A stretch of 56,802 nt of DNA from Terriglobales bacterium (GCA_050012915.1 JBEKGG010000001.1:1-56802), one strand, 5' to 3'; positions 7,281 to 54,827 are shown, numbered from the stretch's first letter. Program-made: numbers and translations. The notes: a model not told the origin generated them from the letters alone.

Positions 7281-7289
7281 TTTGTCTCC

Positions 7290-8187: not shown

Positions 8188-8248
8188 TTTGAAGTAGCCG
8201 CTCGCGGATAAGAACGGAATTCTTTCAACCGGAAATGAAGGAGTCAAT

Positions 8249-9727: not shown

Positions 9728-9747
9728 ATAATCAACAGGAGAAATCT

Positions 9748-37387: not shown

Positions 37388-37575
37388 AGCGGTAAAGCGC
37401 TGGCATAAATGTGCTGATAAAAAACTCTGATCGAATAGATCAATAGAATCAGCTTGACGAAGAATCCCTGATCAGTGCCCACTATCATACTGCGTCGCAT
37501 GTCGAACCTTACCGTTCGGATGGGATTCTGAAGATTGCTTCTTCCACACTAATATTTGACTATTTTCGCTGAGAA

Positions 37576-38745: not shown

Positions 38746-38861
38746 AGCCGGGTTGGGCGGAGGACGGCAAGCCTGAAGCCTGCAGCCGTATTCCTCTGGT
38801 TTCGGGAACAACGGACAAGATCGGCGCCTCATCCAAGGACTCGCGTTAAGGGCAATAACGA

Positions 38862-40370
38862 ATGACTCTCAAGTCAGTCCAGACACTTCTCGACGTTTTG
38901 CACTTTGCGGACGGTCGCGCGGCGGTTATTGTTCCAGAGCTTGGAGTCCCCATCACCTACGATTCGCTTCGCCAGCAAGTCTGGGCCATGGCCAACGCTT
39001 TGGCTTCCATCGGCATTCGTCGCGGCGATACGGTTGCGATCGCGCTGCCGAACGGATTGCCTGCTCTGGTGAGTTTTCTAGCTGCGTCTATCGCTGGAAC
39101 CGCGGCCCCGTTGAACCCGGCGTACCCGTATGAGGAGTTTCATTTTTTTCTCGGCGACACCGGCGCGCGTATTTTGCTTTGTCCGCCGGTAGGGGCGGAG
39201 TTTGTGCGCGCCGCGGCGGCCGACCGCAAGATCCCGGTATTTTCGGTCGAAATGAATGAGCAGGGAAATGTTCACATAGCGAATGCTCCGACTGGAGCCA
39301 CGGCAACCGAGCCCACGGCCGACGACATTGCCCTGATCCTGCACACCAGCGGCAGCACGGGCCGGCCCAAGCGTGTGCCCTTGCGGCATTTCAATCTCGC
39401 CGTATCGTCGGCGAATATCGCGAACACATACACTCTTTCGGAAGACGATGTTTCACTTTGCATCATGCCGCTGTTCCACATCCACGGATTGATTGGATCG
39501 GCCATGGCCACTCTGCTCTCCGGAGGAACCGTGGTGATTCCCAGCAAGTTCAATGCGCTTTCTTTTTGGCGTACGATTCGCGAACATCGCGTAACCTGGT
39601 ATTCGGGCGTGCCCACCATGCATCAGCTTCTGCTGGCGAGGACGCACGACAAACCGGTCGAAGCAGAATCCTTGCGTTTTATCCGCTCTTGCAGCGCGCC
39701 GCTATCGGCGCAACTTATTGGCAAGATCGAGGATTTGTTTGGCGTACCCTTCGTCGAAGCCTACGGAATGACCGAAGCTGCTCACCAGATGACCTCGAAT
39801 CCATTGCCTCCGCGACACCGCAAGGCCGGGTCTGTCGGCGTGAGTACGGGGCTGCGCATTAGCATCATGGACAAGGAGGGCAATCACCTCGCCACCAATC
39901 AGCGGGGAGAAGTTGCCATTCAGGGAGCGAACGTATTCCGCGGATACGAAAATAATCCTGAAGCCAACGCCCGTGCGTTTGTGAATGGATGGTTTCGTAC
40001 CGGTGACGAAGGATTCCTCGACGCAGACTGCTATTTGCATTTGACCGGTCGAATTAAGGACATCATCATTCGTGGGGGCGAGAACATTGCGCCGCATGAA
40101 GTCGACGAGATTTTGCTTAGGCATCCCGCGGTCGCGGCGGTAGTCACCTTCGGTTGCGCGCATCCGACGCTGGGCGAAGAGGTGGCCGCGGCTGTGGTTC
40201 TGCACGAACCCAACGGATCGAGCGAATCGGCGCTGATCGAGCATTGCCGCGAATCGCTGGCGGAATATAAATGTCCAACCAAGATTTATCTGGTGGAAAG
40301 CATTCCCACCACTGCGACGGGAAAAATTCGCCGTCGCGCCGTCGCCTCCGCCCTCGCGGATCGGCCATGA
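38862..40370 (+). CDS. ANL-superfamily acyl-CoA synthetase, closest by eye to AAE3/Pcs60-type oxalate-CoA ligases
   Basis: The AMP-binding motif LHTSGSTGRPKRV is present. Several blocks match my recollection of Arabidopsis AAE3: LRFIRSCSAPL, EAYGMTEAAHQMTSNPLP, GYENNPEAN, GWFRTGDEG and YLHLTGRIKDIIIRGGENI. Superfamily membership is certain. The substrate assignment is inference. Confidence 0.6.
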   Translation: MTLKSVQTLLDVLHFADGRAAVIVPELGVPITYDSLRQQVWAMANALASIGIRRGDTVAIALPNGLPALVSFLAASIAGTAAPLNPAYPYEEFHFFLGDTGARILLCPPVGAEFVRAAAADRKIPVFSVEMNEQGNVHIANAPTGATATEPTADDIALILHTSGSTGRPKRVPLRHFNLAVSSANIANTYTLSEDDVSLCIMPLFHIHGLIGSAMATLLSGGTVVIPSKFNALSFWRTIREHRVTWYSGVPTMHQLLLARTHDKPVEAESLRFIRSCSAPLSAQLIGKIEDLFGVPFVEAYGMTEAAHQMTSNPLPPRHRKAGSVGVSTGLRISIMDKEGNHLATNQRGEVAIQGANVFRGYENNPEANARAFVNGWFRTGDEGFLDADCYLHLTGRIKDIIIRGGENIAPHEVDEILLRHPAVAAVVTFGCAHPTLGEEVAAAVVLHEPNGSSESALIEHCRESLAEYKCPTKIYLVESIPTTATGKIRRRAVASALADRP

Positions 40371-41350
40371 GATTTCTGATCGCGGGAGCCGGAGCGATCG
40401 GAGCTTATATCGGCGCTCGCATGGCCCAGGCCGGATTCGATGTCACCCTCTTTGCCCGCGGCCCACACCTTCGCGCCATGCAGGAACACGGTGTGCAGGT
40501 GAAGAGCGGCGAGGGAGATTTCATCGCCCGCCCCAAAATCGCAAGCGCCCTCGCGGATGTGGGCCCGGTCGACGTTGTTTTTCTTGGCGTAAAAGCGCAC
40601 AGCCTGCCGCAACTCGCTCCGCAATTGCATCCCGTACTGGGGCCCGACACTTCAGTTGTCAGCACGCAGAATGGAATTCCGTGGTGGTACTTCCAGGGTT
40701 TCGGCGGCGAATGGGAAGGATTGCGTCTCGAGCGCGTCGATCCGGGAGGCGTTATATCGTCGGCCATCGAAGCGCCCCGGGTAATTGGATCGATAGTGTA
40801 CTTTGCCACCGAAATTACCGCGCCCGGGGTGGTTCAGCACATCGAGGGGAATCGCATTACTCTTGGTGAGCCCGACGGCACGCGGTCTCATCGTTCCCGC
40901 CAAATTGCAGAAGCGCTGATCGCCGCTGGTTTACGCTGCCCGGTCACGGCTCGAATCCGGCACGACATTTTGGTCAAGATTCTGGGCAACGCCTCCTTGA
41001 ATCCTGTGAGCGCGCTGACGCGAGCTACGGTTGCTGAGATGCTTCGCGATCCGGGCGTTCGCGTCGTGATTCGAAACATCATGGAGGAAGTGGAAGCGGT
41101 CTCCGGTAACTTGGGGATGGAGTTGCCTGTTTCGATCGATCAACGAATTGCGGGCGCGGAAAAAGTTGGCCAGCACAAAACCTCCATGCTGCAGGATCTA
41201 GAGGCCGGCCGCTCGATGGAGTTGGAAGCGCTGGTTGGCGCGGTCGTGGAGCTCGGCGAACGCATGGGTCTCCCAATGCCCATCACTCGAACCGTGTACA
41301 GTTGCGCAAAGCTATTAGCGGAGACTGAGGCTAAGCAACTGGCAAAATAA
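40367..41350 (+). CDS. 2-dehydropantoate 2-reductase (ApbA/PanE) family oxidoreductase, candidate oxalyl-CoA reductase
   Basis: MRFLIAGAGAIGAYIG Rossmann start and a TSMLQDLEAGRSMELEALVGAVV C-terminal KPR-family block. ATGA start/stop overlap with the CoA ligase gene. The track ORF's N-terminal extension from 40271 is rejected. Confidence 0.75.
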   Translation: MRFLIAGAGAIGAYIGARMAQAGFDVTLFARGPHLRAMQEHGVQVKSGEGDFIARPKIASALADVGPVDVVFLGVKAHSLPQLAPQLHPVLGPDTSVVSTQNGIPWWYFQGFGGEWEGLRLERVDPGGVISSAIEAPRVIGSIVYFATEITAPGVVQHIEGNRITLGEPDGTRSHRSRQIAEALIAAGLRCPVTARIRHDILVKILGNASLNPVSALTRATVAEMLRDPGVRVVIRNIMEEVEAVSGNLGMELPVSIDQRIAGAEKVGQHKTSMLQDLEAGRSMELEALVGAVVELGERMGLPMPITRTVYSCAKLLAETEAKQLAK

Positions 41351-41419
41351 GCATAGCTTTCTCCACAGCGGCAAAAGAACGTGGATCGAGTTTCCCCATC
41401 TCCCAAGAAAAATAAAGGG

Positions 41420-41450
41420 TTGACAATAGATAGGACACCGGGCGTATACT
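41420..41450 (+). promoter_or_regulatory. Sigma-70-like promoter (TTGACA-N19-TATACT) upstream of the GntR-family gene
   Basis: Perfect -35 hexamer at 41420-41425 and a near-consensus -10 at 41445-41450. The 19 nt spacer is longer than optimal. Confidence 0.3.
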
Positions 41451-41462
41451 TCGTGCGGTGGC

Positions 41463-41481
41463 TGGTCCACTTATCGGACCA
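41463..41481. promoter_or_regulatory. Inverted repeat TGGTCC-N7-GGACCA, candidate GntR/FadR-type operator
   Basis: Perfect 6+6 inverted repeat between the putative -10 and the ATG (41489) of the FCD-GntR regulator. It fits the generic GntR-family operator logic (GT...AC palindromes). Confidence 0.3.
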
Positions 41482-41488
41482 CTTGAAC

Positions 41489-42199
41489 ATGGCGCTTGCC
41501 AGGACCAAACCGGACTTCGAAGTAATCCGAAGAAACAAGGTCTATGAGGAAGTCGCTCAGCAGATCGAGCGTCTTATTCTGAAAAAATTGCGCCCGGGCG
41601 ACAAACTACCGTCGGAACGGGAACTGGCTGAAATGTTAAAGGTGAGCCGCAGCTCCATCCGGGACGCGATCCGCGGGCTGGAGTTGAGGGGCCTGGTTGA
41701 GCCGCGCCAGGGAGCCGGGACAATCGTTCGCGAGCCGTCATCTGAGCCGTTGGTGAATCCTTTTGCCAACGCGCTGAAGCGCCGGCAGGAGATGGTCAGC
41801 GAGCTTTTGGATTTTCGCAAAATGCTTGAGCCGCCGTTAGCAGCGCGTGCGGCCACGCATGCTTCCGCCGATGAAATTTCTGAGATGGAAGAAATTCTGC
41901 GACGTCAAGAGGAGAAGCAGGCTCAAGGCGAGGCCGCTGTCGCTGAGGATGCAGAATTCCATTACAACATTGCTCTGGCTTCGGGGAATGGCGTGGTGCT
42001 GAAAGTGCTCGACATCATCATGGACCTGCTGCGAGAAACGCGAGAGCGTTCGCTGCAGTTGGATGGTCGGCCACAAAAATCGCTGGCCGGACACCGGCGC
42101 ATCCTGGCCGCAATCAAACGCCACGATGGCGAAGCGGCAAAGGCGGCGATGCGACGCCACATTGAGGATGTAGAAGAGATCGTACTTGACAGGTTTTAA
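41489..42199 (+). CDS. GntR-family transcriptional regulator, FadR/FCD subfamily (GlcC/LldR/PdhR-like)
   Basis: N-terminal winged HTH (KLPSERELAEMLKVSRSSIRDAIRGLELRGLVE) and a C-terminal FCD-type helical domain (EFHYNIALASGN...HRRILAAIKRHD). The ATG at 41489 is preferred over the track start at 41381. Confidence 0.85.
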   Translation: MALARTKPDFEVIRRNKVYEEVAQQIERLILKKLRPGDKLPSERELAEMLKVSRSSIRDAIRGLELRGLVEPRQGAGTIVREPSSEPLVNPFANALKRRQEMVSELLDFRKMLEPPLAARAATHASADEISEMEEILRRQEEKQAQGEAAVAEDAEFHYNIALASGNGVVLKVLDIIMDLLRETRERSLQLDGRPQKSLAGHRRILAAIKRHDGEAAKAAMRRHIEDVEEIVLDRF

Positions 42200-42340: not shown

Positions 42341-44659
42341 TTGACTAAGCTGGCGAATGACACGACCCGTGTGGCCGTCGCGCCTCGCGATGCAGGTGAC
42401 GCGGATCAATCCAAGGCAAAACTGTTCGATGGAATCCAGGGCCAGGAACAGGTCGCAAATCGCGCCGTGTCAGAAATCTCTCCATTACCTCTCGGTCTAA
42501 CTCTTACACTTCGTGTTGCTGAGGCGCGCGTCGAGGACGTTGGCCACGCGATTGCGCGACTGGCGCCAGCCGACTTGCAGCGTATTGGTGTTCGGGCCGG
42601 CGACGTGATCAAGATCAGCGGCGGTGCCGTTGGCGTTGCACGCGCTGAGCTTTCGGATGATGGATACGAAGGCATGATCCAGATCGACGGGACATGCCGC
42701 AGCAATTGTAGTGCGGGCCTGCAAGAGCAAGTGACGGTAGCCAGAATTGATAGCGAGCAAGCGGTCGCCGTTCGCCTCTCACCGCTGTGGGTGGGGGCTG
42801 CGCCAGCGACCATCGCGCCTGATCGAATGCTGGAGGATCTGATCGGCGTTCCGGTGATCGCGGGTTGCGTGGTGCGTGTGCCGACCTTTGCCAAGGCGGT
42901 GAACTTCCAGGTTGTGCGGACGATTCCTTCGGGACCGGTTGTGATCGGGAAACGTACCGACATCCGGGTTGTGGAAGGCGAGCAGACGGCAGCCCGGGCT
43001 CCGGCGGTTTCCTACGAAGACATCGGCGGCCTGGAGCGCGAAGTCGCGCGAGTGCGTGAAATGGTCGAACTGCCGCTGAAGTATTCGCGCATTTTCGAGC
43101 GGCTGGGAATTTTGGCGCCCAAAGGCGTGCTCTTGTACGGCCCGCCGGGCACGGGTAAGACTCTGCTTGCCCGCGCGGTCGCGGCGGAGAGCCGCGTGCA
43201 CTTTATTCACCTCAATGGCCCCGAGATCATGCGGAAGTTCTACGGCGAAAGCGAAGCCAAGCTCCGCGAAGTTTTCGAAGAAGCGGCACGCCACGCGCCG
43301 GCGATCTTGTTCATCGATGAAATCGACGCTGTTGCCCCCAAGCGCACTGAGGTGGTCGGTGAAGTGGAGAAGCGGGTCGTGGCACAGCTTCTCAGCTTAA
43401 TGGATGGTTTCGTCGCGCGCGGCCAAGTGATCGTCATCGGCGCGACCAACATCCCGGAAGTTCTCGATCCTGCGCTGCGCCGCCCCGGGCGTTTTGATCG
43501 CGAAATTGAAATCGGCGTTCCCAACACGCAAGCGCGGTTGCAGATTCTCAGAATTCACACGCGAGCCATGCCGCTGGCGGCGGACGTCGATCTTCAGGAA
43601 ATCGCCGATCATTCGCACGGCTTTGTTGGCGCCGATCTCGAGGCGCTGGGACAGGAAGTCGGAATGATCTCGCTTCGCCGTTTCCTCTCGATGGTCCCGC
43701 TCGATGCTGACGGCGCTTCATCTCCCGACCTGGGTTCGCTGCAAGTTACGCGTGATGACTTTCTCGCAGGGTTGAAGGAGGTCGAGCCCAGCGCCACTCG
43801 CGAGTTCTTTATCGAGAAAAGCGCGTCGACGTTTGCATCGCTCGGAGGTCTCGATGAAGTAAAGCGGTTGCTCCACGCTGTAATTGAGCACTCGCATATG
43901 CGCGACGAGATTTATGAGCAGGTTGGGTTGGCCCCGCCGCGAGGCATTCTTCTAACCGGGCCGTCGGGCACCGGGAAGACTGCGATGGCCCGCGCACTAT
44001 CGGGAGAAATGCAGCTGCCGCTCATCGCCATTGAAGGCCCGCAACTGTACTCGAAGTGGTTGGGCGAATCTGAGCGAGCGCTGCGAGAAGTTTTCAAGAA
44101 GGCACGACGTGCCGCGCCTTGCATCCTGTTCTTCGACACTATTGATGCGATTGCGCCCAAGTTCGGCGCTGATCAGTTCGGCAGCGATGTGTATCAGAGA
44201 ATTCTCAGCCAGCTCTTGCGTGAGATCGACAATTTGCGCGACGTTAAAGGTGTAATTCTGCTCGCGGCCACCAATCGTCCTGAACGGATCGAGCCGGCGC
44301 TGTTGCGGAGCGGGCGCTTCGACTATATACTCCCGTTCGCTAAACCCGATGCTGCCGAGCGCGAAGCGATTATGCGGCTTTGCTGCCGGCGGGTACCCAT
44401 GGCAGCCGATATGGATTTCGAGCAGTTCGCTGGTCGGACGGAAGGATTTACCGGTGCCGATATTGAGAGCCTGTGCAAGAAAGCCACGTTGTTGGCGATT
44501 GCGAAATATCAGGATGGCTCTCGCGTCGCGCCTTTCGTTGTCCTGGCAAACGATTTTCTGTCGGTTCTTCAGTCGGATCGTGGAAGTCCCGAGCAATCGA
44601 AAACAGCGAACGTGAACAACCACGCCGAGGGTACCTGCCCCGACGCGACTACGAAGTGA
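42341..44659 (+). CDS. Cdc48/VAT/p97-like double-AAA+ ATPase with N-terminal double-psi-barrel substrate-recognition domain
   Basis: The N-domain (LRVAEARVEDVGHAIARLAPADLQRIGVRAGDVIKISG) is Cdc48-N-like. D1 has GPPGTGKT, ILFIDEID and pore loop KFYGESE. D2 has GPSGTGKT, ILFFDTID and pore loop KWLGESE. The TTG start at 42341 is uncertain. Confidence 0.85.
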   Translation: MTKLANDTTRVAVAPRDAGDADQSKAKLFDGIQGQEQVANRAVSEISPLPLGLTLTLRVAEARVEDVGHAIARLAPADLQRIGVRAGDVIKISGGAVGVARAELSDDGYEGMIQIDGTCRSNCSAGLQEQVTVARIDSEQAVAVRLSPLWVGAAPATIAPDRMLEDLIGVPVIAGCVVRVPTFAKAVNFQVVRTIPSGPVVIGKRTDIRVVEGEQTAARAPAVSYEDIGGLEREVARVREMVELPLKYSRIFERLGILAPKGVLLYGPPGTGKTLLARAVAAESRVHFIHLNGPEIMRKFYGESEAKLREVFEEAARHAPAILFIDEIDAVAPKRTEVVGEVEKRVVAQLLSLMDGFVARGQVIVIGATNIPEVLDPALRRPGRFDREIEIGVPNTQARLQILRIHTRAMPLAADVDLQEIADHSHGFVGADLEALGQEVGMISLRRFLSMVPLDADGASSPDLGSLQVTRDDFLAGLKEVEPSATREFFIEKSASTFASLGGLDEVKRLLHAVIEHSHMRDEIYEQVGLAPPRGILLTGPSGTGKTAMARALSGEMQLPLIAIEGPQLYSKWLGESERALREVFKKARRAAPCILFFDTIDAIAPKFGADQFGSDVYQRILSQLLREIDNLRDVKGVILLAATNRPERIEPALLRSGRFDYILPFAKPDAAEREAIMRLCCRRVPMAADMDFEQFAGRTEGFTGADIESLCKKATLLAIAKYQDGSRVAPFVVLANDFLSVLQSDRGSPEQSKTANVNNHAEGTCPDATTK

Positions 44660-44675
44660 TGAACGAGGTTTAATC

Positions 44676-45323
44676 ATGAGCTACAGCGAACTTACGGTTT
44701 GGACGCGCGGCATCATCATGGATAAAGAAGGCCGCGATATCGTCAACTCCATTTCCGCTTCCGCCCGCATCGAAGGCAAGTACGCGCAGGCGATGGAGAA
44801 TTACGTCGACAATCCCGATCGCACCAACGCTCCCACGAGAAAATACTGCCGGGTTAGCGATAGCGTGCTCGAAAATGAACTCACATACGAAAACGAACAT
44901 CCCAACATTGTCGTTCTGGTTGAAGGCACGATGGTTAAGGGTTGGGATTACATGCGGGGCATGCCTCCCGGCGGCACGCTAGTGATCAACACGCATTACA
45001 CGCCGGATTACATGATTCGTTTTGTTCCGGGTGCCGAGCGCCTGGCGCAACTGGTGTGCGTTGACGCCGCGAAACTGGCCGACCATAAGTGGCTTTACTA
45101 TCGGCTGGGCGAACTCGGACTCGATCGTCTTTCCACCGAGGGCGCTGCCGAGCGAAACAAATCCATCGCGCCCGACATCGCCGCTCCGTTGATTGCCGCG
45201 GTGGTCAAAACCACGAGCATCGTAAAAATGGAAACGATCGAGCCGATGATTGCCAACAAACACGCATTTCACGCGGCGCTCAACGAATTGCACATCATGT
45301 CACTGAATCCAGTGGCCGTATAA
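44676..45323 (+). CDS. 2-oxoacid:acceptor oxidoreductase gamma-subunit homologue (divergent)
   Basis: Colinear by eye with PorG-type gamma subunits (EGKYAQA, RVSDS..., PNIVVLVEG, GGTLVINT, VCVDAAKLA, IAAPLIAAVVKTTSIV). The usual N-terminal GRGGQG-type glycine motif is replaced by TRGIIMDKEGRD. The gene starts 16 nt after the AAA+ gene stop. Confidence 0.6.
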   Translation: MSYSELTVWTRGIIMDKEGRDIVNSISASARIEGKYAQAMENYVDNPDRTNAPTRKYCRVSDSVLENELTYENEHPNIVVLVEGTMVKGWDYMRGMPPGGTLVINTHYTPDYMIRFVPGAERLAQLVCVDAAKLADHKWLYYRLGELGLDRLSTEGAAERNKSIAPDIAAPLIAAVVKTTSIVKMETIEPMIANKHAFHAALNELHIMSLNPVAV

Positions 45324-45337
45324 GGGAAGGATTTTTC

Positions 45338-47170
45338 ATGTCGACCAAAGGCACGCACATACCCGAATGGCTTACGGTTCCGTTTGCCGGGATCACTCCC
45401 GCGCCCTCGCAGGAAAAGGGGCAGGACCTGTTTCCCACTGGCAATTGGCGCTCAATCCGGCCGGTGTATCGAGACAAATTGCCACCCTGCAACAACGCTT
45501 GCGGAACCAATGAAAAGATTCAGGGGTATCTCGATCTGGTGAAGCGCGGCAAGTATCTGGACGCTTACGCGCTCATCAAGGAAGACATGCCGTTCCCGTC
45601 GGTCACTGGCCGCGTGTGTTATCACCCGTGCGAACAAGCCTGCAATCGCGGAAAGTACGATGAAGCGATCTCCATTCGCGCCGTCGAACGCTTTCTCGGC
45701 GATCTGGGACAGGCGTTGAAACACGACGTGGTAAAAGCTGGAGCGCCGAACGGAAAGAAAGTCGCCGTCGTCGGTTCTGGTCCAGCCGGGCACAGCGCGG
45801 CTTACCAACTTGCGCGCCTCGGCTATCAAGTAACGATTTTTGAGAAATCACCCAAGGCGGGCGGTTTGAATCGTGGGGGTATCCCGGACTGGGTGCTTCC
45901 CGCTGACGTGCTTGATCGCGAGATCGAGCGCCTGGTTGAACTCGGGATCACAATTAAGACCAATGTCGAAGTCGGCAAGGACGTCACTTGGGACGAACTC
46001 AAAAAGAACTACGATGCTTGCGTGCTGGCCGTGGGTCTCACCGAGCCGAACAGCGTGCGCGCCGAAGGAGAGAACAAAGACGGCGTGCTCTACGGTCTTC
46101 CGTTCCTTCGCGACATCGGCATGGGATCATCGAAAGTGAAGCTGGGAGCCCGTGTGGCCGTAATCGGCGGCGGAAACACTGCCATCGATTGCGCCCGTGA
46201 AGCCCTGCGCCAAGGCGCGGTGGAAGTAACCATGATCACCGTGGAAGCCAATCCGCAAGAGATGCCCGCCTCCCCGGAAGATCTGCACGACATGCTCGAA
46301 GAAGGCGTGGAACTGTTCCACGGGCGCGCTGTAACCGCGGTGCTTGGCAACGGCAAAATTGAGGCTCTGCAATTGCATCCGGCGCGTTTTTCTGGCGCCA
46401 TCAATGCCTCACCGATTACTGTCGATCGAGAAGCCTCGCCCGAACGTTTCGAAGTCGACAACGTGATCATCGCAGTTGGACAGCACGCCGCGCTCAAGTG
46501 GTTGCCGGACGAATTCAAGACTGAGCGCGGCACCATCAAGATTGACCGCTTCGGACGCCTGGGTGAGACGAACTTTTTTGCCGCCGGCGACATCGTGCAA
46601 CTCGGTTCCGGTCAGCCGCTGATGGTGGTGAATGCCGTTGGCGACGGCAAGCGTGTGGCTTTCAATCTGGACAAAGTGGTGCGTGGCGAACCGTTGCAGT
46701 CACGGACGATTCCCATCGACGTCATTGTCGATTTGGATCGCATGAACATGACATATTTCCCGCACTTCCCCCGCGTGCAGCAAACTTTGCTGGCGCCGAC
46801 AAGCCGGCGCAAAACGCAGGACGAAGTGATTCAATCGCTCTCGGAAGAGCAGGCCGTTGAAGAAGCTAGCCGCTGTTTTAGTTGCGGTACCTGCAACGCT
46901 TGCGACAACTGTTATCTCGTCTGTCCTGAGCCGTGTATCGCGCGGCCGGAACGTTCGAACGGTCTTTACAAAATTCTGGTCGATTACTGCAAAGGTTGCC
47001 GCGTCTGCATTGAGGAATGTCCGACGGGCTGCCTCGAAGGTGTGCCGGAACTCGACTTCGATACCGGCGTGGTGCGAATGGATACTGCGTTCGCCATCTC
47101 GCCCGGGCTGCATGGGCGGCAAGCGGCGGAGTTGAGGAACCTCGCGGAGCGTCCGGCGAAGAACATTTAA
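45338..47170 (+). CDS. Fusion protein: OFOR delta-subunit (2x[4Fe-4S] ferredoxin) interrupted by a GltD/SudA-like NAD(P)H-FAD-FeS oxidoreductase module
   Basis: - Start: ATG at 45338 with GGGAAGGA upstream.
- N-terminus: TGNWRSIRPVYRDK resembles the TGxWR..P motif of PorD.
- Middle: GltD-like Cys cluster region (GRVCYHPCEQACNRG) and dinucleotide folds (KKVAVVGSGPAGHSAAYQLARLGYQVTIFEK and RVAVIGGGNTAIDCA).
- C-terminus: CFSCGTCNACDNCYLVCPEP and DYCKGCRVCIEECPTGC, typical of PorD. Confidence 0.75.
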   Translation: MSTKGTHIPEWLTVPFAGITPAPSQEKGQDLFPTGNWRSIRPVYRDKLPPCNNACGTNEKIQGYLDLVKRGKYLDAYALIKEDMPFPSVTGRVCYHPCEQACNRGKYDEAISIRAVERFLGDLGQALKHDVVKAGAPNGKKVAVVGSGPAGHSAAYQLARLGYQVTIFEKSPKAGGLNRGGIPDWVLPADVLDREIERLVELGITIKTNVEVGKDVTWDELKKNYDACVLAVGLTEPNSVRAEGENKDGVLYGLPFLRDIGMGSSKVKLGARVAVIGGGNTAIDCAREALRQGAVEVTMITVEANPQEMPASPEDLHDMLEEGVELFHGRAVTAVLGNGKIEALQLHPARFSGAINASPITVDREASPERFEVDNVIIAVGQHAALKWLPDEFKTERGTIKIDRFGRLGETNFFAAGDIVQLGSGQPLMVVNAVGDGKRVAFNLDKVVRGEPLQSRTIPIDVIVDLDRMNMTYFPHFPRVQQTLLAPTSRRKTQDEVIQSLSEEQAVEEASRCFSCGTCNACDNCYLVCPEPCIARPERSNGLYKILVDYCKGCRVCIEECPTGCLEGVPELDFDTGVVRMDTAFAISPGLHGRQAAELRNLAERPAKNI

Positions 47171-47182
47171 ATCGGAGTGAAT

Positions 47183-48391
47183 ATGGCAACAGCTACTGCA
47201 GTGAAAAAGAGAACAGTTCGGATCAATGGTTGCGTGGCTTCGGCGCAGGCCGCCAAGTATGCCGATGTCGATGTGATTACGGCCTACCCCATCCGGCCTT
47301 ACACCGCGACCATGATGGCGCTGGCGCAAATGGTGGCCAACGGAGAACTTGATGCCGAATATATCGTGGCCGACAGCGAGCACTCGCAGTTAAGCATCGC
47401 GCACGGAGCTTCGTCGAGTGGCGCGCGTGTTTTCACCGGCAGTTCCGGCGTCGGAGTGCAATTCGCATATGAGCTTTACTCGCCAATTTCCGGCAGTCGC
47501 ATGCCGGTGCAAATGATGATCGCCGACCGCACTCTCGATCCTCCCGGCGATTTCGGTTCCGAGCACACCGACGCGCTTTCGACGCGCGACATGGGATGGC
47601 TCATGGGCTGGGCCTGCGACGCGCAGGAAGCGTTCGACAATCATCTGATGGGTTATCGAATCGGCGAAGACCCGCGCGTGCTTTTGCCGCAGATGATCTG
47701 CCAGGATGGCTTTTTTGTTTCGCACATCACCAGCGACGTCGAATTACCAGATTCCGGCCAGGTAAAGGAATTCCTGCCTCCGTACAAGCATCCGTATCCG
47801 CTCGATCCGCGGCACCCGGTGTCGCATGGTCCACAGATCATGCCGGAGCAGGGCCCGCCGCTTCAGCTAGAGCGGGCGCGTGCCATGGAAGGCTCGGTGG
47901 ATGTCATTGAGCAGGTTCACGAGGAGTTCGCGAGAATCTTCGGACGGCGATACGATCCCTGGGTCGAAGAGTTTATGACCGATGACGCCGAAGTTGTTTT
48001 CTTTATGCAGGGCGGTCACGCGGTGACTGCACGCTTCGCCATTCAGCACATGCGCGAAAAAGGCCTGAAGGTTGGGCTCGTACGGTTGCGAACTATCCGT
48101 CCGTATCCGACCGATCGGGTGAACGAAGTTCTAAGTAAATTTAAAGTGGTCGGCGTCATTGAAACCAACATGGGACTCGGCAGTGTGAGCAGCGGGGGCG
48201 TTTTGTACGCCGAGGTTTGTGCGGCACTCTACGAAAATCAAAAGCGCCCGTTAGTGGTTTCGTTCATGGCTGGAATGGGTGGCGAGGCCATCGTGCTGAA
48301 AGAATTTTACTGGATGACCGAGAAGATGATGAATGCGCAGAAGCGCGGGAAAATCGAAAAGCGCACGCATTGGGTCGGATTCGAAGAGTAA
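47183..48391 (+). CDS. 2-oxoacid:acceptor oxidoreductase alpha subunit
   Basis: The NGCVASAQAAKYADVDVITAYPIRPYT...SEHSQLSIAHGASSSGARVFTGSSGVGVQF pattern matches PorA/VorA/KorA domain I. The C-terminal domain II is similar. About 402 aa. Confidence 0.85.
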   Translation: MATATAVKKRTVRINGCVASAQAAKYADVDVITAYPIRPYTATMMALAQMVANGELDAEYIVADSEHSQLSIAHGASSSGARVFTGSSGVGVQFAYELYSPISGSRMPVQMMIADRTLDPPGDFGSEHTDALSTRDMGWLMGWACDAQEAFDNHLMGYRIGEDPRVLLPQMICQDGFFVSHITSDVELPDSGQVKEFLPPYKHPYPLDPRHPVSHGPQIMPEQGPPLQLERARAMEGSVDVIEQVHEEFARIFGRRYDPWVEEFMTDDAEVVFFMQGGHAVTARFAIQHMREKGLKVGLVRLRTIRPYPTDRVNEVLSKFKVVGVIETNMGLGSVSSGGVLYAEVCAALYENQKRPLVVSFMAGMGGEAIVLKEFYWMTEKMMNAQKRGKIEKRTHWVGFEE

Positions 48392-48433: not shown

Positions 48434-49498
48434 ATGTCAGCAATTGAAGTGGAACGTCAGATACTGCCAATTCTCGGGAGCCCAAATCAGGGCGCGCGTT
48501 TTTACAACCCTGACTTACCGTCGTCCGAACCGTTCGTCCCCGGCCATCGCACTTGCGCCGGTTGCGGGCCTTCCATCCAATACCGGATGACGAGCAAGGC
48601 TTCCGGCGACAATACGATCCTGGTCGGACCGACAGGCTGTATGTATGTCGCGAACAGTTCGTATTTGTGCACGCCCTACAATGTGCCTTGGGCGCACACC
48701 CAGATTGGCAGCGCGGGCAGCTTCACCGCTGGCGTGGCAGCGGCCTATGAAGCCATGATCCGCAAGGGCAAATGGAAGGGTCAGTTTCCAAATATTATTT
48801 GCGAAGCAGGCGACGGCAGCGCTTCGGACATCGGCCTTGCCTCGATTTCAGGAGCACTTTACCGCAATCACGACTGCCTGATTATCTGCTACGACAACGA
48901 GCAGTATGCGAACACCGGCATTCAGGCCTCATCGCGCACGCCGTACGGCGGCATGACGACATTCTCCCCTCCCGGCCCCGAAGTTCCAGAAGGGAAGAAG
49001 CTGTTTCCCAAAGATCTCGCCCGCATGATGGCGGCGGGCCATCCCCACTGTTACGTGGCGACCGCAAGCGTGGGCTACCCGATCGACTTGATGAACAAAG
49101 TGCGCAAGGGACTCAACCACAAGGGCGCTGCTTATCTCATGGTCTACACGCCTTGCCAGAAGGGCTTCGTGTACGAGACGCCGCGCTCGATTGATCTGGG
49201 CCGGTTGGTCGTCGAATGCGGGCTCTATCCGATCTGGGAGTGGAATCCTGAGAAGCGCGCATACGATTACAGCTTCCGCCCGCAGAATATGCGGCCGGTG
49301 TCGGAGTATTTGAAGTTGCAAGGACGCTTCGGACATCTCCACGCTGAGCACATCGCCAAGTTGCAGCAGTTCGCGAACGAGCAGTGGAAGATGATGGGCG
49401 TCCAGCTGCCGGAGGCCTTGATTCATGCGGCAGATGCGAAGAACCTTACCAACATGGCGTCGGCGGCAGAAGCCGAGGCGGTGGCGCAAACTTTATGA
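48434..49498 (+). CDS. 2-oxoacid:acceptor oxidoreductase beta subunit (thiamine-diphosphate and [4Fe-4S] binding)
   Basis: GHRTCAGCG N-terminal cluster motif and the GDGSASDIGL...YDNEQYANTGIQASSRTP ThDP-binding motif. Confidence 0.85.
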   Translation: MSAIEVERQILPILGSPNQGARFYNPDLPSSEPFVPGHRTCAGCGPSIQYRMTSKASGDNTILVGPTGCMYVANSSYLCTPYNVPWAHTQIGSAGSFTAGVAAAYEAMIRKGKWKGQFPNIICEAGDGSASDIGLASISGALYRNHDCLIICYDNEQYANTGIQASSRTPYGGMTTFSPPGPEVPEGKKLFPKDLARMMAAGHPHCYVATASVGYPIDLMNKVRKGLNHKGAAYLMVYTPCQKGFVYETPRSIDLGRLVVECGLYPIWEWNPEKRAYDYSFRPQNMRPVSEYLKLQGRFGHLHAEHIAKLQQFANEQWKMMGVQLPEALIHAADAKNLTNMASAAEAEAVAQTL

Positions 49499-49896
49499 AC
49501 ACCAAAACCAGTGCTCCCTATCATCCTGTCGAGTCCGCGCCCGAAGCTGAGCCGGAGGGACAGGAAAGTTACATTGTTACCGAAGGCAAGAAGCGCGGCT
49601 CGACTCGCGACGTACGGCCGGAAGCGGCGTTCAATCGCTACTACACGGTTCTTCGCGTTCACGCCGGTGACGCGATCCTTACCGATAACTGGCACACCAA
49701 AGAAGTGCTCGATCACGCGCGGAATAATTTCGAGGGAGTCACGTTCGCAATGCGCACGCTCGAAGCTTGGGGCGCAATGATCGAGAACGATCACCGCGCC
49801 TACTACACGGCGGGCGGCCGGGTCTGGGTCATGGATCTGGAGCCGTCCGAAGGAAAGAAACCGCGCTTGCCCGGCACCGGAGCCGGCAAGAAGTAG
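49495..49896 (+). CDS. Hypothetical protein translationally coupled to the OFOR beta subunit
   Basis: ATGA overlap with the beta-subunit stop. 133 aa with an acidic N-terminus, a basic C-terminal tail (GKKPRLPGTGAGKK) and no motif I recognise. Confidence 0.5.
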   Translation: MNTKTSAPYHPVESAPEAEPEGQESYIVTEGKKRGSTRDVRPEAAFNRYYTVLRVHAGDAILTDNWHTKEVLDHARNNFEGVTFAMRTLEAWGAMIENDHRAYYTAGGRVWVMDLEPSEGKKPRLPGTGAGKK

Positions 49897-49903
49897 GATA
49901 TGG

Positions 49904-50266
49904 TTGCCCCGCATCCTGCTCATCGACGACACGCCGGAGATTGCCGAACTTCTGACATTCTCGCTGCGCGACCGCGGCTACGAAGTCTTTGCATCGGGAT
50001 TTACCGAGGGCATCAACGAACTGGTTGCCCAGCAGCATGCCGATGCGCTTGTACTCGACTGCTCCGTTTTCAACATGAGCGAGTCGCTCTTCGACACCGT
50101 GCGTCATCACCTCGATCATGCCGAGCTTCCCATTGTCATCATCAGTGACACGCCTGAAGAGGCCGACGCGAGTCTGCGCTCGCGAAAAGCCCGAAGAGTC
50201 TTGCTGATCCCGAAACCTTTCACCGGATCGCAGGTTGCAAGAGCGCTCGATCAACTGCTGGGATGA
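49904..50266 (+). CDS. Stand-alone CheY-like response-regulator receiver domain
   Basis: Acidic pair (LLIDDT), candidate phospho-acceptor Asp (ALVLDCS), conserved Ser (VIISD) and Lys-Pro (IPKPF). TTG start. No output domain. Confidence 0.75.
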   Translation: MPRILLIDDTPEIAELLTFSLRDRGYEVFASGFTEGINELVAQQHADALVLDCSVFNMSESLFDTVRHHLDHAELPIVIISDTPEEADASLRSRKARRVLLIPKPFTGSQVARALDQLLG

Positions 50267-50282
50267 CCGTGCAAAGATAAAT

Positions 50283-50606
50283 ATGCCTCTATGGAGCATG
50301 GACGACTGGAAGTACCTCGAGCGTGAGCTCGTCACTGATCCCAACGGCAGGCAGTGGACCGTGGCGCTGATGGATGTGCTGGGACAGGAAGGAGATCCCG
50401 AGATGCCGAACAAGCTGCTGGAACTGCAGTATTCCTCGGGCCGGTATTTCACGCTCGTCTATGCTGACGGGGGAGCGCTACAACGCGAGCGCGGCTACGC
50501 TTCGCTCGAAGAAGCCACGACCGCCTATGAGAATCTGCTGATGGGCGTGATCGATGGCCGTGTCGATCCATCGCAGCCCGTATTCCGGCAGGATCTGGAA
50601 GATTGA
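50283..50606 (+). CDS. Hypothetical small protein
   Basis: ORF of 107 aa (123 aa from the upstream in-frame start at 50235). No recognisable motif and a weak ribosome-binding site, so coding status is only moderately supported. Confidence 0.35.
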   Translation: MPLWSMDDWKYLERELVTDPNGRQWTVALMDVLGQEGDPEMPNKLLELQYSSGRYFTLVYADGGALQRERGYASLEEATTAYENLLMGVIDGRVDPSQPVFRQDLED

Positions 50607-50635: not shown

Positions 50636-51415
50636 CTAGCGGCCCGGATCGAGATCTCTCATCACAACATGCAGGACTTGCCCGGTTCTTCGCGCGTCGT
50701 TCTCGGATGCGACCACCTTCGCGCTGCCGCTCTCGTCGCGGTAGTTCCACGCGACGGCCGGCAGCCGGGCGCACCCGCCGCGAATGAGCCCTGTTTTCTC
50801 GGCGACGGCGATGCGAGTCTCGAACGACCAATCAGCAATCTTTCCTGCAGGCGCGCCCGAAATAGCCAGCGCCGCCAGTCCCTTGGTCTCCAGCGCATCG
50901 GTTACGATAGCTTCCAGGATTCCGCAGGAAGTGTGCAGTGACGCGTCAAAGCGCCCTTGCTCCAGGTCGTGCCGGCTATCGGCATAAGTTTGCTCGAGGA
51001 TGGGCCGGAGTTCGGCATTGTGAACAAAATCGAACCGATGAGGAGGCGGTGCCGCCAATGACGCAGAAATGACCGGCCCATCATCGGTTCCGGAGAGCGA
51101 GGCAACCGCTTGCTCGAGCACGTCGAGCAGTCGGTTGGCGATCTCGGCCGGCGCCGCGCCTTCGACTGCACGACCCGATGCTGAACGCATCAGGAAAGCT
51201 TGGCTAAACGATCGCGCAAGCCAATGCGCTTTGCTGCCTCCGGACAATTGATTGATGGTGACGCCGCAGTCTTCCTGCCAGACTCGGGTGGCTGTGATCG
51301 CGGATTGGTCGGAAGAGTCAGTATTCAACGCATCCCGAAGCTGCAGTCCGCGACGGATAAGGCCATCGAGGTGGGAAAGGTAAGTCTCGATTTGAGTTTG
51401 CAGAGTCTGGTCCAT
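50636..51415 (-). CDS. Hypothetical all-alpha protein, C-terminal region weakly HEPN-like
   Basis: 259 aa, the only minus-strand gene in this block. The C-terminal 130 aa or so look helical and carry an R-x5-H motif (RRTGQVLH) close to the C-terminus, as in HEPN domains. This is a low-confidence family guess. Confidence 0.4.
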   Translation of the reverse strand: MDQTLQTQIETYLSHLDGLIRRGLQLRDALNTDSSDQSAITATRVWQEDCGVTINQLSGGSKAHWLARSFSQAFLMRSASGRAVEGAAPAEIANRLLDVLEQAVASLSGTDDGPVISASLAAPPPHRFDFVHNAELRPILEQTYADSRHDLEQGRFDASLHTSCGILEAIVTDALETKGLAALAISGAPAGKIADWSFETRIAVAEKTGLIRGGCARLPAVAWNYRDESGSAKVVASENDARRTGQVLHVVMRDLDPGR

Positions 51416-51781: not shown

Positions 51782-53128
51782 ATGGCTGCATCTCCAGGCG
51801 CTCTGATTCACCCCTCTCGTATTCCCAACCGTTGGATCCAGTTAGTCGCTGGCATTGTCGCAATGATGGCGATCGCGAATATGCAGTATGCCTGGACTCT
51901 GTTCACCAAGCCCATCCAGGCTCACCTGCATGTGTCGCTGGTAGCGGTTCAATGGACCATCACTCTGTTCGTCGCTTTGGAAACATGGCTTGTGCCTTTT
52001 GAAGGATACCTCGTAGACAAAATCGGACCGCGATTCATGCTGGGTATCGGAGCGATCCTGGTTGGGCTGGGTTGGGTTGGAGCCGGCCGCGCCGAAACCA
52101 TAAGCAACCTCTATTTCTGGTACGCACTGGGGGGCGTGGGAGCGGGAGCAGTTTACGGAGGAACCATCGGCAACGCTCTGAAATGGTTCCCGGATTATCG
52201 CGGCTTATGTGTCGGCCTCACTGCCGGGGCTTACGGCATCGGCACGGCGGCGACAATCTCTCCGATCGCCTCCATGCTGAAAACTTCGGGCTATCAGCAC
52301 ACATTTGTAGTCTGGGGAATCATCCAGGGATTTGTCGTGCTCGCGGCCGCCCTGTTCCTGGCCAAGCCGCCTGCAGGGTGGACGCCGCCGAACTGGAAGG
52401 AGAAAGAGGGCAAGATCAGGGCGAAAGTGAAGACTTCGGCGATCGACATGACCCCAGTCGAGATGCTCCGCCAACCGTCATTCTATGTCCTCTATCTGAT
52501 GCTGACCATGTTAGCTTTCGGCGGTATTGTGGTTACCGTACAGCTCGATCCCATGGCGACCTCGTACCATGTGGACAACGTCATCGTGGTGTTTGGCATG
52601 ACCGCGTTGGTCCTGGCCATTACAGTCGACCGGATTCTGAATGGCTTGACGCGTCCGTTCTGGGGATGGGTGTCCGATCACATCGGCCGCGAAAACGCCA
52701 TCTTCATCTCCTTCGTTCTGGAAGCGATCGCGGTCTTCGCCCTGCTCCAACTCATCAGTCATCCGGTTTGGTTCGTAGCATTATCAGGCCTGTGTTTCTT
52801 TGCTTGGGGCAACATCTATTCGTTATTTCCTTCGATCACCGGCGACCTGTACGGAAACAAATGGGCCACCACCAACTACGGTATTTTGTATACCGCTAAG
52901 GGAGCCGCTACACTGTTTGCCGCACCTGGTGCCGCGTGGCTATTTGCCAAGACCGGATCGTGGAGTAAGGTTTTTTGGGCGATGATTGCGTGCGATCTGG
53001 TTGCCGCTTTCATGGCTCTGCTGTGGCTAAAGCCGCTGGCAGCGCGTGTGGTCCGAGAGTCAGAGCGCACGGCCGCGGCAGGAACCCTACCCGCGGACTC
53101 CTCGATAAAAGCACGGATACTGGCATAG
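51782..53128 (+). CDS. MFS transporter of the oxalate/formate antiporter (OFA) family
   Basis: The N-terminus NRWIQLVAGIVAMMAIANMQYAWTLFTKPI is characteristic of OFA/OxlT-like transporters. 12 TM layout, 448 aa. Confidence 0.75.
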   Translation: MAASPGALIHPSRIPNRWIQLVAGIVAMMAIANMQYAWTLFTKPIQAHLHVSLVAVQWTITLFVALETWLVPFEGYLVDKIGPRFMLGIGAILVGLGWVGAGRAETISNLYFWYALGGVGAGAVYGGTIGNALKWFPDYRGLCVGLTAGAYGIGTAATISPIASMLKTSGYQHTFVVWGIIQGFVVLAAALFLAKPPAGWTPPNWKEKEGKIRAKVKTSAIDMTPVEMLRQPSFYVLYLMLTMLAFGGIVVTVQLDPMATSYHVDNVIVVFGMTALVLAITVDRILNGLTRPFWGWVSDHIGRENAIFISFVLEAIAVFALLQLISHPVWFVALSGLCFFAWGNIYSLFPSITGDLYGNKWATTNYGILYTAKGAATLFAAPGAAWLFAKTGSWSKVFWAMIACDLVAAFMALLWLKPLAARVVRESERTAAAGTLPADSSIKARILA

Positions 53129-53150: not shown

Positions 53151-54827
53151 CTATCCGGCAGCGCCTGCCGCCCTTATCTTCACGGATGGAATTGCGCCCC
53201 GCGTGGTTCCAACAGCCGCCGCGTCAGCGTCGATTTTAAACTTGCCGACCAATCCACGAAGTTGGGTCGACATTTCTACCAGTTGCTGAGCTGCCTTTTG
53301 AGTCTCGGTCGCTCCCTCAGTGGTACTCCGCGCCGCCTCCGCCACTCCTCCAATGTTACTGGTAATTTCTCCGCTTGCCTGAGCGGCCTCGCTAACGTTG
53401 CGCGACATTTCGTTTGTTGTTGCGTTCTGCTCCTCGACGGCCGTGGCGATGGTGCCCGAGATATTGTTGACCTGATTGATCACATCGCTAATCGATGCGA
53501 TTGCATCTACTGCCGCCCTCGTATCAGCTTGGATGGCCTCTATCTTGCGGCTGATGTCTTCAGTGGCCCTGGCGGTCTCTTTCGCGAGTTCCTTGACTTC
53601 ATTAGCGACTACAGCGAATCCTTTGCCTGCCTCACCTGCGCGGGCGGCTTCAATGGTCGCGTTCAGCGCGAGCAGATTGGTCTGCTGCGCAATTGAAGTG
53701 ATAACTTTAATGACTTGCCCAATCTCATTCGAGGACTCGCCCAGCTTGGACACCGTGGCGGTCGTGCTTTCCGCTGCTTTCACTGCTGAAGTCGCCACCC
53801 TCGCCGCTTCAGTGGCGTTTTTGGCAATCTCGTTAATACTGCCCTCCATTTCTTCCGCCCCAGTCGCGACGGTCTGAAGGTTCTGGCTGACCGACAACGC
53901 TGATTTCGAAACCACGTCAGCCTGTGCCTTCGTTTGTTCGGAATTGCTGGTGATCTGCTGGCTGGTGGTGTTCAATGCCTCGCTTGCGCTGGCTACCTGA
54001 TTCGCATTTTCCTTGATGGCCAGGATCATGCGCCTCAATCCGCCACTCATCTCGTTGATCGCCGTGGTCAAGTCACCCAGTTCGTCCCGGCTGCGAATTT
54101 CCAGATCATCACGGGTTAAGTCCCCTGCAGCGATGGCCTGCGCTTGGACAAGAATTGATTGGGTTGTCTGAGCAATGCCCCGGCTCAGGAAAATGGCCAC
54201 ACAGATTCCCATACTCAGTGCGGCAAAAGTGCTCACCGCCATGGTCAGGTTGAGAGAGCGGTTATCGGCGCGCAGTTCTTCTTTGTTCTGGTCCACTAAC
54301 TTGTCAAAAGAATCTGCCATGCTCCCGAGCGATTGTTTCATCGCTATGTTGATCGGTGTCGCGTGGTCGGCGGATTCGTTCCCAGCCTGAATGACGGCGT
54401 CGCGCCCACCATCCGCCGCATGCTTTATCGCCGCCTCCTGAACCGCGCGGAGCAGGGGAAGTTGCTTCTTAATCTCGTCCAGTTGGTCACGGCTTACTTG
54501 GAGGCTCCATTTGGGAGCCAGCTCATCCATGGCGGCGATGTCTTTCTCGACATCGCTCCAGGTTCCGTCAAACAGCTTCTTGGTTGGCTCCAATCGATCT
54601 GCTTCCGTCCCCGCCAGGATTGCCTGACGACCCTTGACCTGGGTTTGATTCAAATCCCGCTGCAACTTTATAGCGGCTTCGAGTGACGGGATGCGCACCT
54701 CGAAGGCGGCATCCTGGCTTTGCCTGATATGGTTCGACTTGATGTAGCTGGCGGTCGCGATGAAGACCAGCAAGAACAGGATTGTGCCAAAGCCCACTCC
54801 GAGTTTCTTCCCAAGGGTTAACTTCAA
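53151..54827 (-). CDS. Methyl-accepting chemotaxis protein (4-helix-bundle sensor, HAMP, signalling domain)
   Basis: Highly conserved signalling hairpin ([32 protein letters not shown]), a HAMP segment ([10 protein letters not shown]), and two TM helices flanking a periplasmic helical domain. Confidence 0.9.

Follow-up and report, generated by a model that had tools for sequence, protein, structure and literature searches.

The stretch of DNA analysed here (the window, 56,802 nucleotides (nt) from a Terriglobales bacterium; GCA_050012915.1 JBEKGG010000001.1:1-56802) contains an operon of four genes, gamma, delta*, alpha and beta, of which the second encodes a protein of 610 amino acids (aa) at 45338..47170 on the plus strand. 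This protein, delta*, appears to be the delta subunit of a 2-oxoacid:ferredoxin oxidoreductase (OFOR) whose chain is interrupted by a large flavoprotein module, while the three partner subunits resemble the oxalate oxidoreductase (OOR) of Moorella thermoacetica. We propose that the four proteins form an OOR whose electrons go not to free ferredoxin but to a pyridine nucleotide, most likely NAD+, and we assign this reading a probability of about 0.65. The wiring of electrons to a pyridine nucleotide would be the most economical reading of such an architecture.

An apparently split delta subunit

The open reading frame (ORF) of delta* is genuine. Its ATG at 45338 lies 14 nt behind the stop codon of the upstream gene and is preceded by GGGAAGGA about 8 nt further 5', its stop codon ends at 47170, and more than 100 database proteins of 610 aa, which are 88-91% identical to delta*, share the start MSTKG. 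Four parts follow each other in the protein: a delta-type arm, a permuted NfnB/GltD-like module with putative sites for FAD, NAD(P) and two [4Fe-4S] clusters, a delta-type core predicted to hold two further [4Fe-4S] clusters, and a tail. Pfam places Fer4_20 (aa 49-124), Pyr_redox_2 (aa 140-437) and a dicluster Fer4_7 domain (aa 518-565) in this order, and the chain carries the motifs TGNWRSIRPV (aa 34-43), GSGPAGHSAA (aa 146-155), IGGGNTAIDCA (aa 276-286), CNACDNCYLVCPE (aa 519-531) and DYCKGCRVCIEECP (aa 549-562). As a whole, delta* aligns to the NCBIfam model NF009410 (PRK12771, "NAD(P)-binding protein") with 515.3 bits over profile positions 28-561 of 566. The AlphaFold2 model of the protein has a mean pLDDT of 84.5 and a pTM of 0.83.

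The N-terminal arm (45371..45475, +; aa 12-46, VPFAG...TGNWRSIRPVYRD) is recognisable on its own. When aa 1-50 were compared with 18,950 NCBIfam models, two matches only were obtained, both to OFOR delta families: OxalOxreddelta (NF045790, E = 1.8e-4), on which aa 12-46 occupy profile positions 227-259 of 316, and PorD_KorD (TIGR02179), on which aa 32-46 occupy positions 10-24 of 78. The C-terminus of delta* covers positions 259-315 of OxalOxreddelta and thus begins exactly where the arm ends (259). It contains the ferredoxin core (46889..47062, +; aa 518-575), which comprises two CxxCxxCxxxCP motifs and closes with the OOR-type ending VPELDF. The core matches residues 260-313 of the Moorella OOR delta chain 5c4i_B and residues 32-81 of 9bt4_G, and it is also detected by the NCBIfam models PorD_Arch and PorD_KorD. 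If the insert is deleted in silico (aa 1-48 joined to aa 518-610), the resulting construct is colinear with residues 227-313 of 5c4i_B (E = 1e-17), the arm being aligned to residues 227-259; PFAG..P.P, TGNWR..RP and VPELDF are common to both. The TIGR02179 score of this construct (65.5 bits) exceeds the curated cut-off of 60.05, compared to 40.8 bits for the C-terminus alone and 45.4 bits for native delta*, which would accordingly count as a PorD_KorD member only after the insert is discounted. Because arm and core abut in profile coordinates and the deletion construct is colinear with an intact delta chain, the delta subunit appears to be split between the arm and the first cluster cysteine, with 472 aa now separating the arm from the first cluster motif. 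Residues T34, G35, W37 and P42 of the arm are invariant in 131 aligned family members, as are all eight cysteines of the core (C519/C522/C525/C529-P and C551/C554/C557/C561-P).

The possibility that the C-terminal dicluster represents the ferredoxin domain of StnC or of the NfnABC large subunits was considered and rejected, with HMMER scores of -6.2 and -1.8 in this region versus 41 bits to OOR delta. Behind VPELDF, delta* continues with a C-terminal tail (47063..47170 including the stop codon, +; aa 576-610) that is modelled with pLDDT below 50. The alignment to the Moorella delta chain stops at residue 313 of 315, i.e., at the C-terminus of that chain, and the tail lies beyond it. Of 31 aligned sequences, only the query and P0122, a relative from a second lineage described below, have the tail (...RMDTAFAISPGLHG...).

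The inserted module

The inserted module (45476..46888, +; aa 47-517) consists of the Fer4_20 region (aa 49-124), the FAD- and NAD(P)-type Rossmann folds (aa 140-437), a linker and a displaced "EAxRCxxC" helix (aa 486-517); both GxGxxG motifs of the two folds are conserved. HMMER aligns it to Thermotoga NfnB (4ylf_B) in two pieces of swapped order, with aa 50-451 on residues 46-462 and aa 486-523 on residues 12-49, which indicates that the insert is circularly permuted relative to NfnB and GltD: the EAxRCxxC segment, N-terminal in the canonical order, sits at aa 486-517 behind the flavoprotein body. The insert is colinear with residues 99-576 of StnC (8oh5_C) and with the NfnABC large subunits 9bov_A and 9n5u_A. 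A Foldseek search with the AlphaFold2 model likewise returned the NADP(H)-binding large subunits of NfnABC and StnABC as best matches (TMq 0.70-0.73, probability 1.00), followed by NfnB, GltD and DPD.

Cluster ligands were mapped by combining the published residue numbers of NfnB (PMC7596348) with the HMMER alignment of delta* to NfnB. The proximal cluster would be bound by C55, C94, C98 and E117 (NfnB C51, C90, C96 and E117), and for the distal cluster the predicted ligands are C51, C102, C513 and C516 (NfnB C47, C100, C39 and C42). These eight positions, seven cysteines and one glutamate, are invariant in the 131 aligned sequences. The distal cluster would thus be drawn from both ends of the insert, which implies that the insert termini meet, a requirement of domain insertion. 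Moreover, C516 precedes C519, the first delta ligand, with only two residues between them, so that the distal NfnB-type cluster probably lies beside a delta cluster. From these positions we infer a continuous chain of thiamine diphosphate (ThDP), the beta cluster, two delta clusters, two NfnB-type clusters, FAD and NAD(P).

The initial annotation of this ORF, made from the DNA alone, had described it as an OFOR delta subunit apparently split by a GltD/SudA-like NAD(P)H-FAD-FeS module of about 470 aa, and in outline this description is borne out. All the motifs that it quoted are found in the translation, and profile hidden Markov models return the domain order that was to be checked. The N-terminus that it regarded as PorD-like hits OFOR delta families only, the opposite of the delta-unrelated N-terminus named there as grounds for doubt, the C-terminal double-cluster core matches OOR delta and PorD profiles, and removal of the insert restores a colinear delta chain. 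Its GltD-like insert with an Fe-S region and two dinucleotide-binding folds also stands, and is refined here by the circular permutation of the segments relative to GltD and NfnB.

An oxalate-type partner enzyme

Besides the permutation of the insert, the existence of a family with this architecture and the pointer to NAD+, the initial annotation missed the nature of the partner enzyme, which is, judged by its sequences, a complete OFOR of the oxalate type. The gamma subunit (44676..45323, +), a separate protein of 215 aa with a Pfam POR domain, corresponds to OFOR domain III. It matches residues 13-210 of 5c4i_B with 148 bits, versus at most 34 bits for PorC chains, and covers positions 14-210 of the OxalOxreddelta profile (E = 4.8e-51). 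The alpha subunit (47177..48391, +; domains I and II) scores 589 bits on NCBIfam OxalOxredalpha (cut-off 500) and is 57% identical to Moorella 5c4i_A across 389 ungapped columns. The stretches YPIRPYT and DRTLDPPGDFG are identical in both proteins; they reportedly carry R31, R109 and the switch loop D116/F117 (Gibson et al. 2015/2016). The beta subunit (48434..49498, +), with the ThDP-binding domain VI and the putative site of the proximal [4Fe-4S] cluster, scores 394 bits against 5c4i_C versus 204 bits against PFOR beta and is of the OOR type as well.

Three OOR equivalog models are available for this comparison (NF045791, NF045792 and NF045790). On the delta model, which has a cut-off of 230 bits, both gamma (174 bits) and delta* (53 bits) remain below the threshold, because the Moorella-type chain is here both split and interrupted. 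The gene order in the window is gamma-delta*-alpha-beta, with delta* in the delta slot, and no second delta gene was found in this operon by ORF and NCBIfam annotation of the window.

A further ORF, orf133 (49495..49896, +; 133 aa), overlaps the beta stop codon with its start (ATGA) and may be a member of the operon. It has no Pfam or NCBIfam match, and a counterpart with 84% identity occupies the same position (11197-11559) in L002, a metagenome-assembled genome of the Acidobacteriaceae. Orf133 may contribute a fifth, so far unrecognised component to the enzyme or serve in its maturation.

Proposed electron path and probable acceptor

The identity of the acceptor is suggested by the dinucleotide-specificity site (46232..46252, +; aa 299-305, MITVEAN), where V302-E303-A304 take the positions of Y310-R311-R312 in NfnB. 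In NfnB and DsrL-2, this YRR motif binds the 2'-phosphate, while DsrL-1, which does not have it, uses NAD(H) (PMC7596348). More generally, the characterised DsrL enzymes without YRR use NAD(H) and show little or no activity with NADP(H) (PMC7596348). The motif YRR(S/T)R is present in all of 120 diverse OFOR-type relatives of delta*, and TVE(A/G)N in all 11 acidobacterial OOR-linked sequences. By the DsrL motif rule, the replacement of YRR by VE(A/G) predicts NAD+ as acceptor, and NAD+ rather than NADP+ is therefore most likely.

The following path could be envisaged for the complete enzyme. Oxalate would be decarboxylated on ThDP in the active site formed by alpha and beta, without participation of coenzyme A (CoA), as in the Moorella OOR. 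The two electrons would leave singly via the [4Fe-4S] cluster of beta and then pass both clusters of the delta core, from which they would go on to the two NfnB-type [4Fe-4S] clusters of the insert. The FAD would gather the electrons and transfer a hydride to NAD+, and the resulting NADH would presumably feed respiration.

Objections and alternative explanations

Several points weigh against an NAD+-linked OOR. The rule that equates YRR with NADP was derived from DsrL and NfnB, not from OFOR-linked members of the family. The docking of delta* on alpha and beta is assumed from its homology to the delta parts of OOR and PFOR, and ferredoxin might still gain access to the distal delta cluster, which would allow dual acceptor use. 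The beta subunit scores 446 bits on NCBIfam OxalOxredbeta, where the cut-off is 590, and delta* itself is 0.7 bit short of the PRK12771 cut-off of 516. Finally, OFORs are usually oxygen-sensitive, yet Acidobacteriota are mostly aerobic.

Of the alternative explanations, the use of NADP+ by the same enzyme through the same electron path, with the NADPH serving a nearby PanE-like candidate oxalyl-CoA reductase, survives best, although we regard it as unlikely. The NADP-type YRR of all 120 diverse family members speaks for it, as do the Azoarcus 2-oxoglutarate oxidoreductase (KGOR), which is reportedly NADP+-dependent, and the presence of an assimilatory, probably NADPH-using reductase in the same locus. 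However, both arginines are gone and a glutamate is gained at the decisive site in 11 of the 11 sequences of the clade, and in DsrL enzymes the loss of YRR accompanies NAD(H) use with little or no NADP(H) activity.

Somewhat less probable is that the catalytic core acts on another 2-oxoacid, e.g., glyoxylate or pyruvate, and that the complex is a general 2-oxoacid:NAD(P)+ oxidoreductase. The sub-threshold score of beta would fit this possibility, the alpha and beta genes next to most family members are of the POR/VOR type, and the pathway of the neighbouring assimilation genes runs through glyoxylate. On the other hand, alpha passes its OOR cut-off and has substrate-binding stretches identical to those of the Moorella OOR, gamma is of the OOR type, an oxalate transporter and an oxalyl-CoA synthetase-like ligase are encoded in the locus in conserved synteny, and the second lineage retains DRTLDPPGDFG in 61 loci along with an OFA-family transporter gene.

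It is more doubtful still that the NfnB-like FAD carries out flavin-based bifurcation or confurcation, with two acceptors (such as NAD+ and ferredoxin) or an extra partner, as in NfnAB, NfnABC and StnABC. Among solved folds, the nearest are indeed NfnB and subunits of NfnABC and StnABC, both of them bifurcating complexes, and the electrons of oxalate, whose potential lies far below that of NAD+, would otherwise lose energy. Yet no NfnA, HydB or HydC homologue is annotated in the window within or beside the operon, the module offers a single Fe-S path, which leads to delta, and the non-bifurcating GltD, DPD and DsrL have the same fold.

A plain GltD-ferredoxin fusion or DsrL-type protein that happens to be encoded beside an OFOR can be set aside as highly improbable: DsrL does share the overall domain order and the NCBIfam family, but arm and core rebuild an OOR-type delta above the PorD cut-off, the operon has no other delta gene, delta* occupies the delta slot at every locus examined, and there are no dsr genes among the annotated neighbours. 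In its strict form, a fusion unrelated to OFOR, it is rejected on the basis of the profile scan of aa 1-50 and the alignment of the deletion construct.

Distribution of the family and a second lineage

The design of delta* is not singular: the protein falls at the cut-off of the PRK12771 family, which has many OFOR-linked members. The protein of L003 scores 795 bits and the DsrL of L033 730 bits on this model. A search of 1.84 billion cluster representatives with delta* yielded 3,788 matches below 1e-30, and the top 150 include dozens of proteins of 545-610 aa with 35-44% identity to delta*. These proteins carry TGxWRxxRP near residue 20-50 together with two C-terminal dicluster motifs, arm and dicluster being common to dozens of clusters at 50% identity, and many members bear JGI labels both as "GltD-like" and as "OFOR delta subunit". 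More distant relatives of 740-780 aa clearly have gamma fused in front (P0140, P0154, P0357/L082). In P0035 (829 aa, from one ENA contig), a close relative, gamma and delta* read as one protein (...LNQWPRRKDHMSTKG...), which may be a natural re-fusion or may result from a frameshift or an assembly error.

The genome scan for family loci gives a lower bound of the taxonomic range, which comprises at least the groups named here. In every inspected locus whose family member has the arm, OFOR genes adjoin it. The gene order gamma-delta*-alpha-beta is found in the window, L001, L002 and L081, and L082 has the gamma::delta* fusion followed by alpha and beta. In L003-L008 (Rhodocyclaceae and Actinomycetota), alpha and beta lie immediately upstream of delta*, and gamma was confirmed upstream of alpha in L003 only. 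The database search proposed with the initial annotation thus located the same architecture beside OFOR alpha and beta genes in other phyla (L003-L008, L081 and L082). A KGOR-type locus, with a two-subunit KorAB beside a family member, was sought among the genome matches, and the full-length matches from beta- and gammaproteobacteria did not fit: L033 is part of a dsr cluster, and L021 and L056 resemble it in layout; L025 was too short for a judgement. L081, a distant relative, has a second alpha-beta pair (8950-11102) behind gamma-delta*-alpha-beta, which suggests two catalytic cores for different substrates that share one gamma and one NAD(P)-linked delta*.

The OOR-linked version occurs in a second lineage as well. 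P0122 is 49% identical to delta*, has the same tail and is devoid of the YRR motif, and a search with it gathered 80 soil-metagenome loci at 75-100% identity. Wherever these loci are long enough, the order is gamma-delta*-alpha-beta, and their alpha subunits average 64% identity to that of the window. DRTLDPPGDFG is found in 61 and YPIRPYT in 55 of the 80 loci, and genes for an OFA-family transporter and a GntR protein often follow downstream. Since this lineage keeps both the OOR motifs and the operon order, an OOR with a split delta subunit is apparently not restricted to one clade. The abundance of these genes in soil metagenomes is judged from thousands of cluster members together with more than 80 second-lineage loci.

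The surrounding oxalate locus

The operon is embedded in genes with an apparent function in oxalate metabolism. Downstream, an OxlT-like transporter of the major facilitator superfamily (oxalate/formate-antiporter family; 51782..53128, +) scores 481 bits on TIGR04259 (cut-off 335) and is syntenic in L002. Upstream, an apparent oxalate assimilation set extends over 35816-41350 (+) and consists of a malate-synthase-like protein, a glyoxylate-type aminotransferase, an oxalyl-CoA synthetase-like ligase and a PanE-family reductase. With 314 bits, the malate-synthase-like protein stays short of the cut-off for malate synthase A (594.5). For the ligase (38862..40370, +), the best solved structures are the oxalyl-CoA synthetases 6qjz (419 bits) and 5ie0 (409 bits), compared to 262 bits for the best non-oxalate ligase structure. 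The reductase (40364..41350, +), a 2-dehydropantoate-reductase-family (PanE-like) protein and candidate oxalyl-CoA reductase, scores 416 bits on NF005089 (cut-off 223) and is syntenic in L002; it is presumably of the PanE2 type known from Methylobacterium. With a start of the reductase at 40364, its ORF would share a few bases with that of the ligase. The oxalate gene set as a whole is syntenic in L002. Parallel to the putative OOR, the oxalyl-CoA synthetase, the PanE-like reductase, the malate-synthase-like protein and the aminotransferase would constitute a branch that assimilates oxalate through glyoxylate.

A regulator of the GntR/FadR family (41381..42199, +), whose counterpart in L002 lies directly upstream of gamma, is a candidate regulator of the locus. 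In the window, a CDC48-family double-AAA ATPase of 772 aa (42341-44659, +; 779 bits, cut-off 802.65) is located between the GntR gene and the OOR operon; it is absent at that position in the syntenic L002 and therefore looks like a lineage-specific insertion. Behind orf133 follow a stand-alone response-regulator receiver (49904-50266, +) and two ORFs without a Pfam or NCBIfam match (50235-50606, +, 123 aa; 50636-51415, -, 259 aa), the latter two lying between the operon and oxlT. A methyl-accepting chemotaxis protein is encoded directly downstream of the oxalate transporter (53151-54827, -). Both the chemotaxis protein and the receiver may be linked to oxalate sensing or taxis.

Implications for soil oxalate turnover

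In the literature searched, the anaerobe Moorella provides the only OOR described, which is linked to ferredoxin; neither an OOR that uses a subunit of this kind, or is otherwise linked to NAD(P), nor a connection between Acidobacteriota and OOR is described there. The Pelobacter genome paper and a review of iron-sulfur flavoenzymes likewise offer no pertinent information. The pairing with oxalate, the NAD-type site, the abundance in soil and the interpretation of the whole family as a split delta subunit with a permuted insert appear to be new. The enzyme would be the first OOR that bypasses ferredoxin, and the exchange of YRR for VEA would offer a clean natural switch from NADP to NAD.

Much carbon passes from plants and fungi into soil in the form of oxalate. 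A survey of oxalotrophy from 2023 uses only frc, oxc and oxdc and finds Acidobacteria among the groups not previously described as oxalotrophs (PMC10192776). If the proposed function is correct, there is an abundant route of oxalate consumption that is invisible to surveys based on the frc/oxc/oxdc markers, and the NAD+-linked OOR, being very abundant in soil metagenomes, would add both a route and a marker gene for soil oxalate turnover.

These considerations lead to a wider hypothesis, which we put forward tentatively, considering it a little more apt to fail in some part than to hold throughout. Soil Acidobacteriota and at least one further lineage would oxidise oxalate by a CoA- and ferredoxin-independent oxalate:NAD+ oxidoreductase, and the permuted NfnB module, whose two ends together bind the [4Fe-4S] cluster that closes it, would be an insertion cassette that turns an OFOR delta subunit into a port for pyridine nucleotides. 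DsrL may descend from such a protein.

Comparison with known systems

The closest characterised enzyme is the OOR of Moorella thermoacetica (5C4I, 5EXD, 5EXE; Moth_1591-1593). Alpha aligns to its counterpart at the identity given above without a gap, beta and gamma are of the OOR type, and the delta arm and core align residue for residue, including VPELDF. In Moorella, domains III and V reside in one chain of 315 aa and electrons are passed to ferredoxin, whereas in the window the gene is broken in the linker between III and V and the arm is followed by a flavoprotein insert of about 470 aa. With the OFOR-linked members of PRK12771, delta* has in common the arm, the permuted module, the dicluster, the invariant Cys/Glu ligands and the delta slot; unlike them, it has OOR-type rather than POR/VOR-type partners, reads VE(A/G) at the site where they read YRR, and is extended by a tail at the C-terminus.

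DsrL belongs to the same NCBIfam family and has the same domain order as delta*. Biochemical work on DsrL demonstrates that such proteins pass electrons between NAD(P)(H) and a partner enzyme (PMC7596348). The partner of DsrL is DsrAB, and the genes for DsrL lie in dsr clusters; DsrL-like genes linked to POR/VOR were excluded from DsrL by the authors (PMC7596348); the OFOR-linked relatives have thus been noticed but, in the literature searched, not studied. By the definition used there, a DsrL gene comes from an organism with dsrAB and is unlinked to POR/VOR (PMC7596348); delta* is linked to OFOR genes. Among the proteins compared here, that of L033 (Hydrogenophilales; 6926-8884) is encoded between dsrK and dsrJ and is therefore taken as DsrL; its cluster is a confirmed dsrK-L-JOP cluster, and L021 and L056 show the same layout of ORF sizes. 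The arm of this DsrL is degenerate (SSWTHKCPEY; FQSSWTHKCPEY versus FPTGNWRSIRPVY), and the junction "EAKRCMSCGQC" is retained. The DsrL literature aligns the distal-cluster ligands to the N-terminal segment (PMC7596348). The present alignment suggests that these ligands are instead supplied by the CxxC immediately ahead of the C-terminal ferredoxin domain. It further indicates that throughout the PRK12771 family, DsrL included, a permuted NfnB module interrupts a delta subunit, a construction for which we found no statement in the DsrL literature searched.

NfnB, GltD, the N-terminal half of DPD and the large subunits of StnABC and NfnABC (4YLF, 5JCA, 6S6S, 1H7W, 8OH5, 9BOV, 9N5U) share with the insert the pair of Rossmann folds, the two [4Fe-4S] sites and the glutamate ligand. 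Relative to NfnB and GltD, the first ~45 residues of the unit (EAxRCxxC) have been moved behind the flavoprotein body in delta*. StnC and the NfnABC large subunits have the same permuted order, but there the module is set in a NuoG/FdhA-like scaffold and not in a delta subunit.

OFORs that pass electrons to a pyridine nucleotide via an added flavoprotein have precedents in the KGOR of Azoarcus and in PadEFGHI, which differ from the OOR of the window in their substrates. In the 2-oxoglutarate:NADP+ oxidoreductase of Azoarcus evansii, KGOR-alpha has been placed in the GltD family (PMC10134865). NCBIfam contains models for the phenylglyoxylate:NAD+ oxidoreductase PadEFGHI. The core of KGOR is of the two-subunit type, and the Pad enzyme keeps a separate delta subunit (PadF) and a separate flavoprotein (PadH). 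As both enzymes are already known, the suggestion of the initial annotation that delta* represents a new kind of prokaryotic NAD(P)-linked OFOR was too strong. In eukaryotes, the pyruvate:NADP+ oxidoreductase of Euglena and Cryptosporidium embodies the same functional idea, an OFOR fused to an NADP reductase. There, however, a C-terminal FMN/FAD module of the cytochrome-P450-reductase type is attached to a single-chain PFOR, so that the reductase is unrelated to the one inserted in delta* and the topology is different.

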